This document shows, in pieces, positions 1-41,553 of a stretch of 64,000 nucleotides of DNA. The notes under the pieces were generated by a model, which saw only the letters and a program-made list of their open reading frames with translations, was not told where the DNA came from and did not search any database. The DNA is taken from assembly GCA_964590195.1 (NCBI GenBank), contig CAZPWJ010000001.1, forward strand, positions 89,686-153,685. Reading direction: 5' to 3'. Position 1 is the stretch's first letter. Every line of letters begins with the position of its first letter. Source of the stretch: an uncultured Rhodospirillaceae bacterium (GTDB lineage Bacteria > Pseudomonadota > Alphaproteobacteria > GCA-2731375). The position numbers and the translations under genes were made by a program.

Positions 1-800
1 TCGCCCTGGCCAGAAAAGACGAGACGAGAAGCCGTACCCTATTGCAACGGGGCACGATCACGCGGACGCGCCATGAGCGGGACCAACAGAAGGTCGAGAG
101 CCTTGTGGCGCAGCTGCGCGAAGCCCAGGCCGGGGAACGCAAGGCGCGGGAACAACTGACGGCAGGCGGCAGCCGGATGCGGGCGGCACGCGAGAAATTG
201 ACCCAGGCGCGGTCAGAAGAACGGGAGGCGCGCCTGGCATTTGAATCTGAGAGCGGCGGCCTGAATCCGGAAGTTCGGCGTATTACCGCCCAGCTGGACA
301 GCAAGACCTGGGAACTGGCACAAACGGAGATAAAGGCACCGGCGGCGGGATATGTGACGCAAGTGGCCCTGCGCCCAGGTCAGATGGCCGTCCCCCTGCC
401 GTTGGCTCCGGTCATGATCTTTGTTCACGCCGAGCGCCCATTGTTGGCGGCGAGCTTCCCCCAGAATGTGATCACCGCGATCAAACCCGGACAGGAAGCC
501 GAGCTCGCCTTCAAGGCCTACCCAGGGCGCATTTTCAAGGCGAAAGTGGACCGCATTCTGCCGGTCATATCCCAGGGTCAGGCCACCGCCAGCGGCACCA
601 TCAGGTCCTTGCCGTCGGCAAAATCCCTGGGCCGGATACCGGTCGTGTTCGCATATGGCGACGATGTCGAAGCCCTGGACCTGCCCGCTGGCACCCTCGC
701 CTCCGTTGCGATCTATACGGAGCGGGTGCGGTTCCTGGCAATCCTGCGCAAAATTCTATTGCGGATAAGGAGCTGGGAGAACTATATCTTTATTCCCTAG
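1..800 (+). CDS. HlyD/EmrA-family efflux membrane-fusion (periplasmic adaptor) protein, C-terminal ~250 aa; 5' end lies outside the window
   Basis: Open frame from the window edge (frame of ORF 42..800) to TAG at 798-800; a coiled-coil stretch rich in E/R/A/Q followed by a beta-rich C-terminal domain, typical of HlyD-type adaptors. Assignment is by overall architecture, not a specific motif. Confidence 0.55.
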   Translation, partial: ALARKDETRSRTLLQRGTITRTRHERDQQKVESLVAQLREAQAGERKAREQLTAGGSRMRAAREKLTQARSEEREARLAFESESGGLNPEVRRITAQLDSKTWELAQTEIKAPAAGYVTQVALRPGQMAVPLPLAPVMIFVHAERPLLAASFPQNVITAIKPGQEAELAFKAYPGRIFKAKVDRILPVISQGQATASGTIRSLPSAKSLGRIPVVFAYGDDVEALDLPAGTLASVAIYTERVRFLAILRKILLRIRSWENYIFIP

Positions 801-830: not shown

Positions 831-1451
831 ATGTCGGAACCTATCGTATTGGAAATATTCACCGATTACGTTTGACCGTGGTGTTATCTCAGTACCGGGC
901 GTATTGAAAAACTGAAGCGGAATTTCAACATCGAGGCGAAATGGGTGCATTTTCCCCTGCATCCCGAAACGCCCCAGGAGGGCCGCAGCCTGGAAGAGCT
1001 GTTCGCGGGCCGGGGCGTGGACCTGGATGCCATGTATACCCGCATGAAAGGCCTGATGGACGAAGAGGACCTGCCGTACAGTCACCGTACCCACACCTAC
1101 AACAGCCGCCTGGCCCAGGAACTGGGCAAATGGGCCGACACCCAACAGGGAGGCGAGGCCATCCATGACGCCCTTTACCGGGCCTATTTCGTCGATGGCG
1201 TGAACGTTGGCGATGTGGAGGCGTTGCTGAAAGTGGCCGCCGCCGTCGGCCTGGACGTGGAGGCGGCGCGAGAGGTTCTTGAATCCCGCAGCTTCTCGGA
1301 CGCGGTGGACGAGGATTGGGCGAAATCCAGGCAATATGGCGTTACCGGCGTTCCCACCTTTGTCGCCGGCCGCCAAGGCGTGGTTGGGGCACAGCCATAC
1401 GAAGCCTTGGAACAGTTTTTACAGCAGGCCGGGGTCGAGCGAAGAAGTTAA
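831..1451 (+). CDS. DsbA/FrnE-family thiol:disulfide oxidoreductase with an in-frame TGA (873-875) at the first Cys of the CxxC motif (reads U-P-W-C); candidate selenoprotein or point-mutation pseudogene
   Basis: ATG 831 follows an AGGAAGG SD (815-821). Translation is MSEPIVLEIFTDYV-TGA-PWCYLSTGRIEKL..., in the same frame as ORF 945..1451 (945-831=114). The N-terminal beta1 strand plus C-P-W-C-Y of the FrnE/DsbA fold is encoded except for TGA where the nucleophilic Cys belongs. The rest is a DsbA-like thioredoxin fold. Confidence 0.7.
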
Positions 1452-1468: not shown

Positions 1469-2215
1469 TCAATGCACGGAATCGTCGGCGTTCGGCGCGC
1501 TCAATTGCGCATCCGCCGCGACCCAGAGGCCGGTTTGCGTGAAGCCGGGTTCGGCCAGGCGGATCATGGTCTCGGCGACATGTTCGGGCGGCGGCAGTTG
1601 CTCCGCGTCTTCGCCGGGGAAGGCGGCTGCCCGCATCTCGGATCGGGTTGGGCCCGGATTGACAATATTAACCCGCAGGGCCGTGTTCTGGGTTTCCTTG
1701 GCGTAGGTCTGGGCGATGGCATCCAAGGCCGCCTTGGTCGAGGCGTAGAGCGCCCAATAGGGCGGCAGGGATTGCCCCGCGCCGGAGCTGAGAAAGATCG
1801 CCCGTCCCGCATCGGACTGTCGCAACAGCGCATCCATGGAACGGATCAGGCGATAATTGGCGGTGACATTTAGGTCATAGGCGCGCTGCCAGACATCGGG
1901 GCGGATGTGGCCCACCGGCGACAGATCACCAAGAATAGCGGCGTTGCCAACCAGAATATCCAGCTTGCCCCAGCGCTTAAAGATCTGCCCGCCCAGATCG
2001 TCGATGGCGCCAAAATCGCTCAGGTCCATGGGTACCAGCGTGGCGCTGCCGCCTTGCGCCCGAATTTCGTCGTCCACTTCCTCCAGCGCGCCGGTGGTCC
2101 GCGCCACCAGAATGACGTGGGCGCCTTCGCCGGCATAGGCCTTGGCAATGGCGGCGCCAATGCCGCGGGAGGCGCCCGTGATCAGGGCGATACGGTCCTT
2201 TAAACGTTGGCTCAT
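1469..2215 (-). CDS. SDR-family short-chain dehydrogenase/reductase
   Basis: N-terminal TGASRGIG Rossmann motif; catalytic YASTK (YxxxK). Start assigned at ATG (MSQRLKDRIALITG...) rather than the upstream TTG at 2248. Confidence 0.85.
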   Translation of the reverse strand: MSQRLKDRIALITGASRGIGAAIAKAYAGEGAHVILVARTTGALEEVDDEIRAQGGSATLVPMDLSDFGAIDDLGGQIFKRWGKLDILVGNAAILGDLSPVGHIRPDVWQRAYDLNVTANYRLIRSMDALLRQSDAGRAIFLSSGAGQSLPPYWALYASTKAALDAIAQTYAKETQNTALRVNIVNPGPTRSEMRAAAFPGEDAEQLPPPEHVAETMIRLAEPGFTQTGLWVAADAQLSAPNADDSVH

Positions 2216-2244
2216 CGCACTATCCCGCCCATCACGCCGGCCCT

Positions 2245-3807
2245 TCAACCATGTTCCGCCAGCAGCGACAATTGCGCCGGCGACCGGCCCTGGGCCAGAT
2301 CAACCAACGACACCGGATAATCGTCGGTAAAACAGGCATCGCAATATTGCGGTTCATCACCGTCACGGTCCACTCCGCCAACCGCCTGATAGAGGCCATT
2401 GATGGAGATAAAGGCCAGGCTGTCGACGCCGATTTGCCGCGCCATGGTCGCCACATCCATATTGGCGGCCATCAGCTCTTCCCGGCTGGGCGTATCGACC
2501 CCGTAATAACAGGGATTGGCGGTGGGCGGTGAGGCGATACGCATGTGCACCTCGGTGGCGCCGGCATCGCGGACCATCTGCACGATCTTTTTCGAGGTGG
2601 TACCGCGCACGATCGAATCATCCACCAGCACCACGCGCCGGCCCTCGATCTCGGCCCGATTGGCGTTGTGCTTCAGCTTGACGCCGAAATTGCGGATATT
2701 CTGGGACGGCTCGATGAACGTCCGGCCCACATAATGGTTGCGGATAATACCCAATTCGAAGGGCACGCCTGCCTCTTCGGCATAGCCAATGGCGGCAGGC
2801 GTTCCGGAATCAGGCACCGGGATGACCACGTCCGCCGGCATCGCGCTTTCCTTGGCCAGCGCCGCGCCGATCGCCTTGCGCACGGAATAGATGGAGCGGC
2901 CCTGGGCGATGCTGTCGGGTCTGGAAAAATAGACATATTCGAATATGCAGGGCCGCGATTTGGCGGGCGGAAAAGGCGTCAGGCTTTCGATGCCCCGGCG
3001 GCTGCAGATGATCACTTCGCCCGGCGCCACCTCGCGCACCAGTTCGGCACCGATAATATCCAGGGCGCAACTTTCCGAGGTCAGGATCGGCGCCCCGTCC
3101 AGATGGCCCAACAACAGCGGCCGTACACCCATGGGATCACGCACGCCGATCAATTGATCCTCGGTCATGGCAACCAGGCTGTACGCCCCGACCACGGATT
3201 TCAGGGCATCGATGATACGGTCGATCAGGTCATGATAGCTGGAGGTGGCGATCAGGTGGATGATCACCTCGGTATCCATGGTCGATTGGAAGATACAGCC
3301 GCGCTTGACCAGTTCGCTGCGCAGGGTGCCGGCGTTGGTCAGATTGCCGTTATGGCCGATGGCGAAACCGCCAGTTTGCAACTCCGCGAACAAGGGCTGG
3401 ACGTTGCGTAATACGGTATCGCCCGTGGTGGCATAGCGATTGTGCCCCAACGCCACGTCGCCCGGCAGACGGCTGATCACCGCTTCCGAGTTAAAATTAT
3501 CGCCCACGTGCCCCAGGCTGCGGTGGGAATAGAACTGCCCGCCATCGTGAGTGACGATGCCGGCGGCTTCCTGGCCGCGGTGTTGCAGGGCATGCAGGCC
3601 CAAAACCGTGTGGGCGGCGGCATCGCTGCTGCCGAAAATACCGAAGACGCCGCATTCTTCGTGAAACTTGTCACCGTCCGCCCCAAGTCGGTCATGGGGA
3701 CGGGCAAATGGATGTGTGGTCAGATCCAAGGTCAGGTCCTTTGCGGGCACGGGGCCGGCGTCATTGATACAGTCGTCATTATGATCGTTTGGGGAGCGCT
3801 GCTTCAA
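2245..3807 (-). CDS. purF: Amidophosphoribosyltransferase
   Basis: N-terminal propeptide followed by CGVFGIFG (Ntn Cys); PRTase motif VVLVDDSIVRGTT; conserved cvpA-purF linkage. Confidence 0.95.
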   Translation of the reverse strand: MKQRSPNDHNDDCINDAGPVPAKDLTLDLTTHPFARPHDRLGADGDKFHEECGVFGIFGSSDAAAHTVLGLHALQHRGQEAAGIVTHDGGQFYSHRSLGHVGDNFNSEAVISRLPGDVALGHNRYATTGDTVLRNVQPLFAELQTGGFAIGHNGNLTNAGTLRSELVKRGCIFQSTMDTEVIIHLIATSSYHDLIDRIIDALKSVVGAYSLVAMTEDQLIGVRDPMGVRPLLLGHLDGAPILTSESCALDIIGAELVREVAPGEVIICSRRGIESLTPFPPAKSRPCIFEYVYFSRPDSIAQGRSIYSVRKAIGAALAKESAMPADVVIPVPDSGTPAAIGYAEEAGVPFELGIIRNHYVGRTFIEPSQNIRNFGVKLKHNANRAEIEGRRVVLVDDSIVRGTTSKKIVQMVRDAGATEVHMRIASPPTANPCYYGVDTPSREELMAANMDVATMARQIGVDSLAFISINGLYQAVGGVDRDGDEPQYCDACFTDDYPVSLVDLAQGRSPAQLSLLAEHG

Positions 3808-4514
3808 TTGTCCGTCCGGTTCTGAATAAGGCGGTTCATATCTTCGCGCGAGCCCGATGTATAGCCGCTTTCGCTCTGCTTGTCAGTTCCGCTCTTCGAA
3901 CCGCCAACTGCATCTTTTAGCTGTTCCGCCGAGCGCCCGGCCTTGATGGCATTGTCGAGAATGGAATCCAGGTTCTGGCCGCCCTCCTTGCCCAGTTCAC
4001 CGATCCCGGCAAGACCCTCGCGGACATTTTCAGGCGCCACGCCCGCCAGCATTTGGGCGCTGTATTTGATGGCCGGCATGGCCCGCGCCTGGCGCAACCA
4101 ATCGGGCTGGTCCTTGGCCGGCAGGAATTGCAACAGAACGATGTAAGCCAGCGCAATCACCACGACACCGCGCAATAAGCCAAACAAGAACCCGAGTGAG
4201 CGGTCCAGAATGCCGATTTCACTGCGTTGTACCCGCCGCGATATGGCCGATGACAGAAATGAAGCCGCGGTCAGCACGGCGACAAAGATGACCACCGTCG
4301 CGATGCTGCCGGCGATCAAGGGCTGATTGACATAGTTTTGTACCAGGGGCTGCACATGAGGGAACAATCCGATCGTGGCGACGGTCGCAATGACCCAGCC
4401 GCCGATGGACAGCACTTCCTTGACGAAACCACGGCTCAACGCCAGCAGGCCCGAAACCAGCAGGATCGCCAGGATCGCCAGATCCGTTACATTTATGGGC
4501 AAATCGCTTAACAT
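3804..4514 (-). CDS. cvpA: CvpA-family membrane protein (colicin V production protein homolog)
   Basis: Multi-TM N-terminal region (MLSDLPINVTDLAILAILLVSGLLALSRGF...), hydrophilic C-terminus, located immediately upstream of purF as in many Proteobacteria. Start taken at MLSDL. Confidence 0.8.
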   Translation of the reverse strand: MLSDLPINVTDLAILAILLVSGLLALSRGFVKEVLSIGGWVIATVATIGLFPHVQPLVQNYVNQPLIAGSIATVVIFVAVLTAASFLSSAISRRVQRSEIGILDRSLGFLFGLLRGVVVIALAYIVLLQFLPAKDQPDWLRQARAMPAIKYSAQMLAGVAPENVREGLAGIGELGKEGGQNLDSILDNAIKAGRSAEQLKDAVGGSKSGTDKQSESGYTSGSREDMNRLIQNRTDN

Positions 4515-4521
4515 GGCGGTT

Positions 4522-5913
4522 CTATACGGCCTCCACACCATGGGAGGCAAACAGTTCCACCAATTCCGGCAAACGGCTGATTTCGCTGATCGCCAGGGGA
4601 CTCTTGCGTTGTTTGCGGACGGTGGGCGTCAGGGCCCGGGTGAAGCCCAGTTTAGCCGCTTCCTTCATACGTAGTTCCGCCTGCGCAACGGCTCGCACCT
4701 CACCCGATAGGCTGATTTCACCGAACAAAACCGCTTCTTGCGGCACCGGCACTTCCATCAACGATGACACCAACGCGGCGGCCACCGCCAGATCCGCGGC
4801 TGGTTCATTGATGCGCAAACCGCCCGCCACGTTCAAATAGATGTCATGGCCGGCCATGCCCAGGCCACAGCGGGCATCAAGCACGGCCAGCACCATGGCC
4901 AGGCGGTTGCCGTCCCAGCCCACCACCGTGCGCCGCGGATTACCGGGGGGCGAGGGCGCGACCAGGGCCTGAATTTCCACCAGCACCGGGCGGCTGCCCT
5001 CCAGGCCGGCGAAGACGGCGCTGCCCGAGATATCGCCCGCCTCGCCACGATTGGCCAGAAACAGGGCGGAGGGGTTGCTGACTTCCATCAGGCCGGCATC
5101 GCTCATCTCGAACACGCCGATTTCGTCCGTCGGGCCATACCGGTTCTTCACGGCGCGCAGGATGCGAAACTGATGGCCGCGTTCGCCTTCGAAATACAGC
5201 ACGCTGTCGACCATATGCTCCAACACCCGTGGCCCGGCGATCTGGCCGTCCTTGGTCACATGGCCCACCAGCAGCAGGCAAATATCCTTGCGCTTGGCGG
5301 CGCGGATCAATTCCTGGGCCGAGGTACGGACCTGGCTGACGGTGCCGGGCGCCGATTCAATGCTGTCCACGTACATGGTTTGGATCGAGTCTATAACCAC
5401 CACCTTGGGGCTATCCGGGCCGTCCATGGTGGCGACAATGTCACGCACCGAGGTTGCCGCCGCCAGATCCAGCGGCGCGCCTTCCAGGCCAAGACGCCGT
5501 GCCCGCATACGAACCTGGGCCGGCGCCTCCTCACCCGAGATATAGGCGCAGGCGACACCCTGCTGGGCCAGACGGGCGACGACCTGCAACAAAATGGTGG
5601 ATTTGCCAATGCCCGGATCACCGCCGATCAAAATCGCCGAACCGGGTACCAGGCCGCCGCCGCAAACCCGGTCGAACTCACCCAGGCCCGAAACGGTACG
5701 CGGGCCTTCCATTTCGCCATGCTGGTTCAGCTTGCGAAAGTCCAGCACCCGGCCCTTCATGCGGCCCGAGCTTTCCAGGCCCTTCGGCGGTGCATCCCGC
5801 GCGGCTTCTTCCGTGATGGAGTTCCACTCGCCACAGCCCGAACAGCGCCCGGACCACTTGCCGTGAACCGCGCCACAGCTTTGACAGACAAAAGTTTCGG
5901 CTGCCTTGGCCAC
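4522..5913 (-). CDS. radA: DNA repair protein RadA/Sms
   Basis: N-terminal C4 zinc finger (CQSCG...CSGCGEW); Walker A GDPGIGKST; KNRYG motif; Lon-protease-like C-terminal domain. Confidence 0.95.
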   Translation of the reverse strand: MAKAAETFVCQSCGAVHGKWSGRCSGCGEWNSITEEAARDAPPKGLESSGRMKGRVLDFRKLNQHGEMEGPRTVSGLGEFDRVCGGGLVPGSAILIGGDPGIGKSTILLQVVARLAQQGVACAYISGEEAPAQVRMRARRLGLEGAPLDLAAATSVRDIVATMDGPDSPKVVVIDSIQTMYVDSIESAPGTVSQVRTSAQELIRAAKRKDICLLLVGHVTKDGQIAGPRVLEHMVDSVLYFEGERGHQFRILRAVKNRYGPTDEIGVFEMSDAGLMEVSNPSALFLANRGEAGDISGSAVFAGLEGSRPVLVEIQALVAPSPPGNPRRTVVGWDGNRLAMVLAVLDARCGLGMAGHDIYLNVAGGLRINEPAADLAVAAALVSSLMEVPVPQEAVLFGEISLSGEVRAVAQAELRMKEAAKLGFTRALTPTVRKQRKSPLAISEISRLPELVELFASHGVEAV

Positions 5914-41477: not shown

Positions 41478-41553
41478 GCCGCCTTAGCTCAGTTGGTAGA
41501 GCATCGCATTCGTAATGCGGAGGTCGGGTGTTCGAGTCACCCAGGCGGCACCA
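41478..41553 (+). tRNA. tRNA-Thr (anticodon CGT), CCA encoded
   Basis: Cloverleaf by hand: acceptor GCCGCCT/AGGCGGC, D-arm GCTC-AGTTGGTA-GAGC, anticodon stem TCGCA/TGCGG with loop TTCGTAA (anticodon CGU), T-arm GGGTG-TTCGAGT-CACCC, 3' ACCA. Confidence 0.9.

Follow-up and report, generated by a model that had tools for sequence, protein, structure and literature searches.

A probable FrnE/DsbA-family selenoprotein, with a covarying SECIS hairpin, in an uncultured marine alphaproteobacterium

Results

The locus and its reading frame

The window – the whole stretch of DNA analysed here, 64,000 nucleotides from an uncultured Rhodospirillaceae bacterium – contains on its forward strand a coding sequence (831..1451) of 206 codons, counting a putative selenocysteine (Sec) at residue 15, that ends at TAA 1449-1451 and whose product, judged from its translation, its Pfam and FrnE matches and its orthologs, appears to be a DsbA/FrnE-like selenoprotein. 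An earlier note on this DNA had set the gene beside an SDR gene and an HlyD-type adaptor. Both are present, although the details need amending: the adaptor, of the HlyD/YiaV type and represented by its C-terminal part, is the upstream ORF at 42-800 (forward strand), while the SDR gene is downstream and convergent (1469-2248, minus strand). The minus-strand genes over 1469-5913 are the SDR gene, a purF-like amidophosphoribosyltransferase gene (520 aa), CvpA (Colicin_V) and RadA (463 aa).

The frame that opens at ATG 831-833 reads MSEPIVLEIFTDYV, meets TGA at 873-875 and proceeds through PWCYLSTGRIEKL, remaining open as far as the terminal TAA; the TGA is the one internal stop among the 206 codons. 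ATG 831 is the sole start codon between an in-frame stop upstream (798-800) and the TGA, and 8 nt to its 5′ side there lies a Shine-Dalgarno-like AGGAAGG on the forward strand, read directly from the sequence, which the earlier note had recognised but placed at 815-821, one base to the left of its actual position, 816-822. The TGA would encode residue 15, the first position of a U-P-W-C motif (873-884). Two further claims, that a single in-frame TGA falls at the first Cys of CPWC and that the frame continues into a 168-aa ORF with a GTG start (945..1451, forward strand), were both borne out: that ORF, which figures in the ORF list and is what gene callers report, is the tail of the 831 frame.

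Translated with Cys at the stop, the gene product matches the Pfam DSBA domain (PF01323) at E = 2.2e-37, residues 7-198 aligning with positions 2-191 of the 191-position profile. Among solved structures, the nearest in sequence is that of Deinococcus radiodurans FrnE, a DsbA-family disulfide isomerase (PDB 5cnw, 5cp1; E = 1.5e-28, with residues 2-203 aligned to FrnE 9-221). The CPWC of FrnE aligns exactly with the motif at residue 15, in keeping with the FrnE/DsbA-type CxxC placement given in the earlier note; the loop G-(V/I)-T-G-V-P is conserved, and neither protein has a signal peptide. FrnE differs in having Cys where the window protein would have Sec and in its length of 260 aa, of which residues 222-260 are without counterpart in the window protein, which ends at 206. 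The C-terminal tail of FrnE carries a second redox pair, CxxxxC. Such a pair is absent from the translation of the window gene, in which Cys18 is the only cysteine besides Sec15, and for want of the C-terminal extension we call the protein FrnE-like rather than a FrnE ortholog.

The position of the redox motif, already at residue 15 and straight after the first beta strand (MSEPIVLEIFTDYV), leaves no room for a signal peptide, suggesting that the 206-residue product is probably cytoplasmic, as is FrnE. Chains of periplasmic DsbA match weakly (4pwp, E = 2.5e-4); identity with the periplasmic E. coli type, which has a signal peptide and the motif CPHC, was ruled out because the window protein has no signal peptide and carries U-P-W-C.

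Conservation of the TGA

A scan of species-representative genomes returned 80 ortholog loci, 79 of which cover the TGA site. The codon at this site is TGA in 77 of the 79 and TGC in the other two (L058, L077). The TGA-bearing orthologs, with protein identities to the window protein of 63-96%, are spread over Alpha-, Beta- and Gammaproteobacteria, Methylomirabilota/Rokubacteria and one Acidobacteria MAG; the Alphaproteobacteria among them, marine as well as soil, include Rhodospirillaceae, Defluviicoccus and Stellaceae. The closest loci (L015, L001) belong to uncultured Rhodospirillaceae-type MAGs, several of which bear ocean-sampling names (SI072, ETNP). The full-length homologs P0045, P0048, P0051, P0070 and P0072 have Cys at the Sec column.

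All 77 TGA genes are otherwise intact (202-215 codons, with no further stops or frameshifts), and purifying selection is apparent on both sides of the TGA. Across the 14 codons 5′ of the TGA variation falls mostly at third positions (entropy 1.24 bits there versus 0.36 bits at second positions, 77 genes), which indicates that these codons are translated and are not a leader. The recurrence of the same codon, TGA, in 77 of 79 independent species-level genomes argues that it is no chance event; moreover, neither a nonsense mutation nor a base-call error can yield a pattern that combines a conserved TGA, intact genes and coding-type codons upstream.

At the Sec position, two homologs have Arg instead (DYV-R-PWC). 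One of them (P0036, L087:456-1091) uses CGA, a single transition away from TGA, and retains an intact SECIS hairpin downstream, identical to that of the window; the explanation is either a TGA-to-CGA change of very recent date, which would kill the redox centre, or an error in assembling the 1.2-kb contig. The second case, P0087, is a more divergent homolog.

A conserved hairpin downstream of the TGA

The earlier note had looked to an alignment of orthologs to show whether the position holds Cys or a TGA with a conserved downstream hairpin: in 77 of the 79 loci it is the latter. The hairpin was defined from an alignment of the TGA and the next 45 nt in 63 distinct sequences. The putative bacterial SECIS element occupies 883..912 on the forward strand and comprises an upper stem of 7 bp, 889-895 (UCAGUAC) pairing with 901-907 (GUAUUGA), an apical loop at 896-900 (CGGGC), and a lower helix of 3 bp, 883-885 (GUU) with 910-912 (AAC), separated from the upper stem by an internal loop and identified by RNAalifold. 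The upper stem begins 13 nt, and the apical loop 20 nt, past the UGA. In the apical loop the consensus is C-G-K-G-C, and both G residues (alignment columns G25 and G27) are invariant in the 63 sequences; an eighth basal pair, 888/908, is possible only where the codon is GAG.

Covariation in the alignment supports this structure. Of the cells tested, 89.9% are paired, a figure that falls to 17-51% in controls with the 3′ arm shifted by 1-3 columns. Compensatory double changes occur in four of eight stem pairs – U-A to C-G in four sequences, A-U to U-A in three, C-G to G-C or U-A in two, and A-U to G-C or U-A in two – and none of 500 shuffles reached the observed covariation score. RNAalifold found the same upper stem independently along with the lower helix, in which pair 12-39 shows 17 double changes: here the wobble base of the second-Cys codon covaries with that of a Lys codon (UA 24, CG 17, UG 16).

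The same region is marked by a loss of synonymous freedom. Codons 20-25 are frozen (CTC 74/77, AGT 69/73, ACC 75/75, GTG 48/48, CGT 75/77 and ATT 63/73) in genomes where other four-fold sites vary freely, and over the whole gene third-position entropy reaches its minimum in the 8-codon window 17-24. In all four readable Cys-form genes (L058, L077, L088, L089), by comparison, the hairpin is unable to form: similar amino acids are encoded there by other codons, for example CTC AGC ACG CCG CGC ATC.

The hairpin alone has a predicted energy of about -5.9 kcal/mol. The stability of single-sequence folds is indistinguishable from that of shuffles (z = 0.16 for 873-940 and 0.30 for 860-990); the minimum free energy fold of the shorter stretch includes the conserved upper stem. 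No Rfam family matched the hairpin, either in the window at the gathering threshold or in 840-960 at E <= 10, a negative of little weight; apart from a tRNA-Thr, the Rfam output contained only Moco-II and Ysr251, both chance hits. The stems put forward in the earlier note (880-883/893-896 and 904-909/923-928) were not recovered by RNAalifold, the conserved one being 889-895/901-907, and were rejected since they overlap the conserved stem out of register.

Selenocysteine machinery

The 64-kb window yielded no tRNA-Sec in the RNA-gene scan and, when queried by tblastn with the E. coli proteins SelA, SelB and SelD from L081 and L082, no selA, selB or selD; the single RNA gene detected in it is a tRNA-Thr (anticodon CGT, 41478-41553, forward strand). 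When the same queries were run against the window and the 80 ortholog loci together, matches were confined to one ortholog locus, L079, from a Nitrosovibrio MAG. This locus carries selA (1623-2990; PF03841, E = 2.5e-158), selB (2987-4906, with GTP_EFTU, SelB beta-barrel and SelB winged-helix domains) and a tRNA-SeC with anticodon tca (4859-4954), and directly 3′ of these the TGA-containing DsbA-like gene, which starts at 5001 (whole region 1623-5620); selD was not found in the 10 kb of this locus that was covered. The DsbA-like gene and the Sec-decoding apparatus are here in direct physical linkage.

A crude search of the window for further coding frames broken by a TGA listed 112 candidates; judged by the surrounding peptides only, none but that at 873 had a recognisable redox motif in a coding-like context.

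Annotation of the family in public databases

Among the matches listed, the closest database proteins (75-100% identity) are nearly all 168, 171, 184 or 189 aa long and cover 80-89% of the query, and full-length entries appear only at or below 72% identity. Short entries at high identity are what a conserved TGA, taken for a stop by gene callers, would produce. Indeed, the short calls begin at the first GTG, ATG or TTG past the TGA and lack the first 17-38 residues together with the active site. Those of 168 aa are either nameless or bear the JGI name 'predicted DsbA family dithiol-disulfide isomerase'; on the metagenome contigs L083-L086 the JGI call is of this length, with the product of 945-1451 unchanged. 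The 168-aa ORF at 945-1451 is an annotation artefact and not a real product.

No NCBIfam model matched the full-length protein at its cut-off, and automatic pipelines are for that reason likely to go on missing the selenoprotein. The best model, NF041057, scored 39.8 bits against a cut-off of 190; identity with it was rejected, the match being a partial one to a different seleno-lipoprotein family and far under the cut-off.

Discussion

The TGA at 873-875 is almost certainly a genuine selenocysteine codon and not a defect. The TGA is conserved, a covarying SECIS hairpin lies behind it, Cys forms have lost that hairpin, and one ortholog is adjacent to selA-selB-tRNA-Sec; together these findings support the reading of 831-1451 as a selenoprotein of the FrnE/DsbA family, its UGA recoded by way of the element at 883-912; on these comparisons of sequence we put the probability of this reading at roughly 0.93. 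The same lines of evidence support the original suggestion that Sec stands at the nucleophilic Cys of the CxxC.

A critical issue is whether some other process could account for an in-frame UGA at this position. The account that fares best, although it is very improbable, is that the UGA is read through without Sec, either by near-cognate Trp or Cys or because UGA has been reassigned, and that the hairpin is a generic stimulator of read-through. The small size of the hairpin would suit such an account. UGA is, however, the ordinary stop of other genes in the window, so the genetic code is not reassigned; moreover, exchange between Sec and Cys is the documented pattern at the catalytic Cys position, which is where the UGA lies, the hairpin has the published feature of bacterial SECIS elements in its small G-containing apical loop, and the ortholog at L079 sits directly behind selA-selB-tRNA-Sec. 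Even less probable is that the gene is decaying, its redox centre lost through a recent change of TGC or TGT to TGA, or that the TGA is a miscall – the alternative that the earlier note had itself allowed for. TGA is one base from TGC and TGT, the 64-kb window holds no sel genes, and gene callers treat the codon as a stop; but the ortholog survey effectively refutes this account, given that TGA recurs in 77 of 79 independent species-level assemblies, at identities as low as 63%, without other stops or frameshifts, with purifying selection on either side and with a conserved covarying hairpin that is missing from the Cys forms. Just as improbable is a CxxC-less product of 168 aa translated from GTG 945 (or of 184 or 189 aa, starting just past the TGA), with the upstream 38 codons as a leader: ORF 945-1451 does have a GTG start and does match public gene calls, but codons 1-38 are conserved as protein with coding-type substitutions, which contradicts the start at 945 entertained in the earlier note, and they hold strand beta-1 and the CxxC helix, aligning with FrnE from residue 9 onward, while a start at 945 would lose the thioredoxin-fold core and active site, the Pfam DSBA match begins at residue 7, and a good Shine-Dalgarno sequence precedes ATG 831.

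If the UGA is decoded as Sec, then a scheme for synthesis and catalysis can be proposed. The hairpin at 883-912, which lies inside the coding sequence, would recruit SelB-GTP-Sec-tRNA(Sec) as the ribosome meets the UGA at 873-875, and Sec15 would be inserted co-translationally in place of termination. The product would be a cytoplasmic thiol-disulfide oxidoreductase of 206 residues (about 23 kDa), devoid of a signal peptide and with U15-P-W-C18 as its redox centre. The selenolate of Sec15 may attack a substrate disulfide, with Cys18 resolving the adduct via a selenenylsulfide, so that the enzyme would alternate between selenolate/thiol and Sec15-Cys18 selenenylsulfide forms while reducing or isomerising disulfides, as does the CPWC of FrnE. 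The integrity of the gene, the conservation of its TGA, a hairpin that is both conserved and covarying, and homology to FrnE as well as to published DsbA-like selenoproteins are matters of observation; we infer that the window organism possesses the Sec machinery and does insert Sec, and likewise the cytoplasmic location, the substrate and the redox direction outlined here.

The family to which the gene belongs is not new. A survey of the Sargasso Sea selenoproteome (Zhang, Fomenko and Gladyshev 2005, PMC1088965) described nine sequences of a DsbA-like selenoprotein family (COG2761) with the motif UxxC, and later surveys extended the family to cultured bacteria. In a 2026 review (PMC13188914) it appears as 'DsbA-like protein form 1' (PF01323, UxxC, representative NIP15863.1), among selenoproteins that were found bioinformatically and whose functions are largely uncharacterised. 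One of the Sargasso Sea sequences, AACY01473751 (supplement to PMC1088965; protein MVQVEIFTDYVuPWCFLSTVRIEKLKKNF..., DNA TGACCGTGGTGTTTTCTCAGTACCGTGCGTATTGAAAAG), has the same motif, the same hairpin and the same SECIS nucleotides (CTCAGTACCGTGCGTATTGA) as the window gene, with 72% identity over 89 aa (E = 2e-50); a full-length member from the same supplement, AACY01028493, is 57% identical over 192 aa (E = 7e-85). With DsbA-like form 1 the window protein shares the PF01323 domain, the Sec position, the peptide F-T/I-D-Y-V/I-U-P-W-C-Y/F-L-S-T and a marine origin, and all the sequence-level features of that form – domain, UGA at the CxxC, SECIS-like stem-loop and overall similarity – are found at the locus. 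Nothing of substance differs: the apical loop is CGGGC in the window gene and CGUGC in the published form, and the host is another uncultured marine Rhodospirillaceae-like alphaproteobacterium. On sequence grounds, then, the gene is an ordinary member of the family published in 2005 and was in that sense already known.

The hairpin, too, has recognisable relatives. Bacterial SECIS elements are characterised by a stem-loop just 3′ of the UGA whose apical loop is small and contains G (PMC1088965). The window element resembles the fdhF-type SECIS of E. coli, a hairpin directly behind the UGA to which SelB binds, in being a hairpin internal to the coding sequence, at a fixed short distance past the UGA and with a conserved G in a small loop; it differs in primary sequence, in its shorter upper stem (7 bp) and in its lower helix of 3 bp.

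No new kind of system is revealed by these data, and their value is chiefly one of annotation: a genuine selenoprotein gene whose active site is missing from public calls. Recognition of the gene marks an uncultured marine alphaproteobacterium as a probable user of selenium, and adds one well-supported SECIS element (883-912), with covariation, to the DsbA-like family. With 77 of 79 species carrying the TGA, the orthogroup is nearly fixed for Sec, and the SECIS sequence is almost identical across Proteobacteria, Methylomirabilota and Acidobacteria. A speculative and rather doubtful extension is that the gene spreads horizontally, sometimes with a compact Sec cassette, and is the main or only client sustaining the Sec trait in many aerobic marine and soil bacteria. 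Were this so, it would be an unusually Sec-dependent thiol oxidoreductase and not one of a facultative Sec/Cys family.

The genes around the ortholog loci form no informative operon, and a conserved neighbourhood was rejected as a guide to function. The order SDR-purF-cvpA is kept only in the closest relatives (L001-L008, L010, L012, L013 and L015), adjacency to radA only on the JGI contigs L083 and L084, and an HlyD-type adaptor next to the selenoprotein gene only in the window lineage and L009; since gene order is kept only among closest relatives, the neighbours offer no functional clue. The upstream pairing of a DUF3302 gene with an HlyD-type membrane-fusion adaptor (L083:5424-7086; 42-800 in the window) corresponds to yiaW-yiaV of E. 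coli. In E. coli K-12 (L082) about 4 kb separates yiaV and yiaW from selB-selA, and the presence of such a pair near sel genes there is probably a coincidence.
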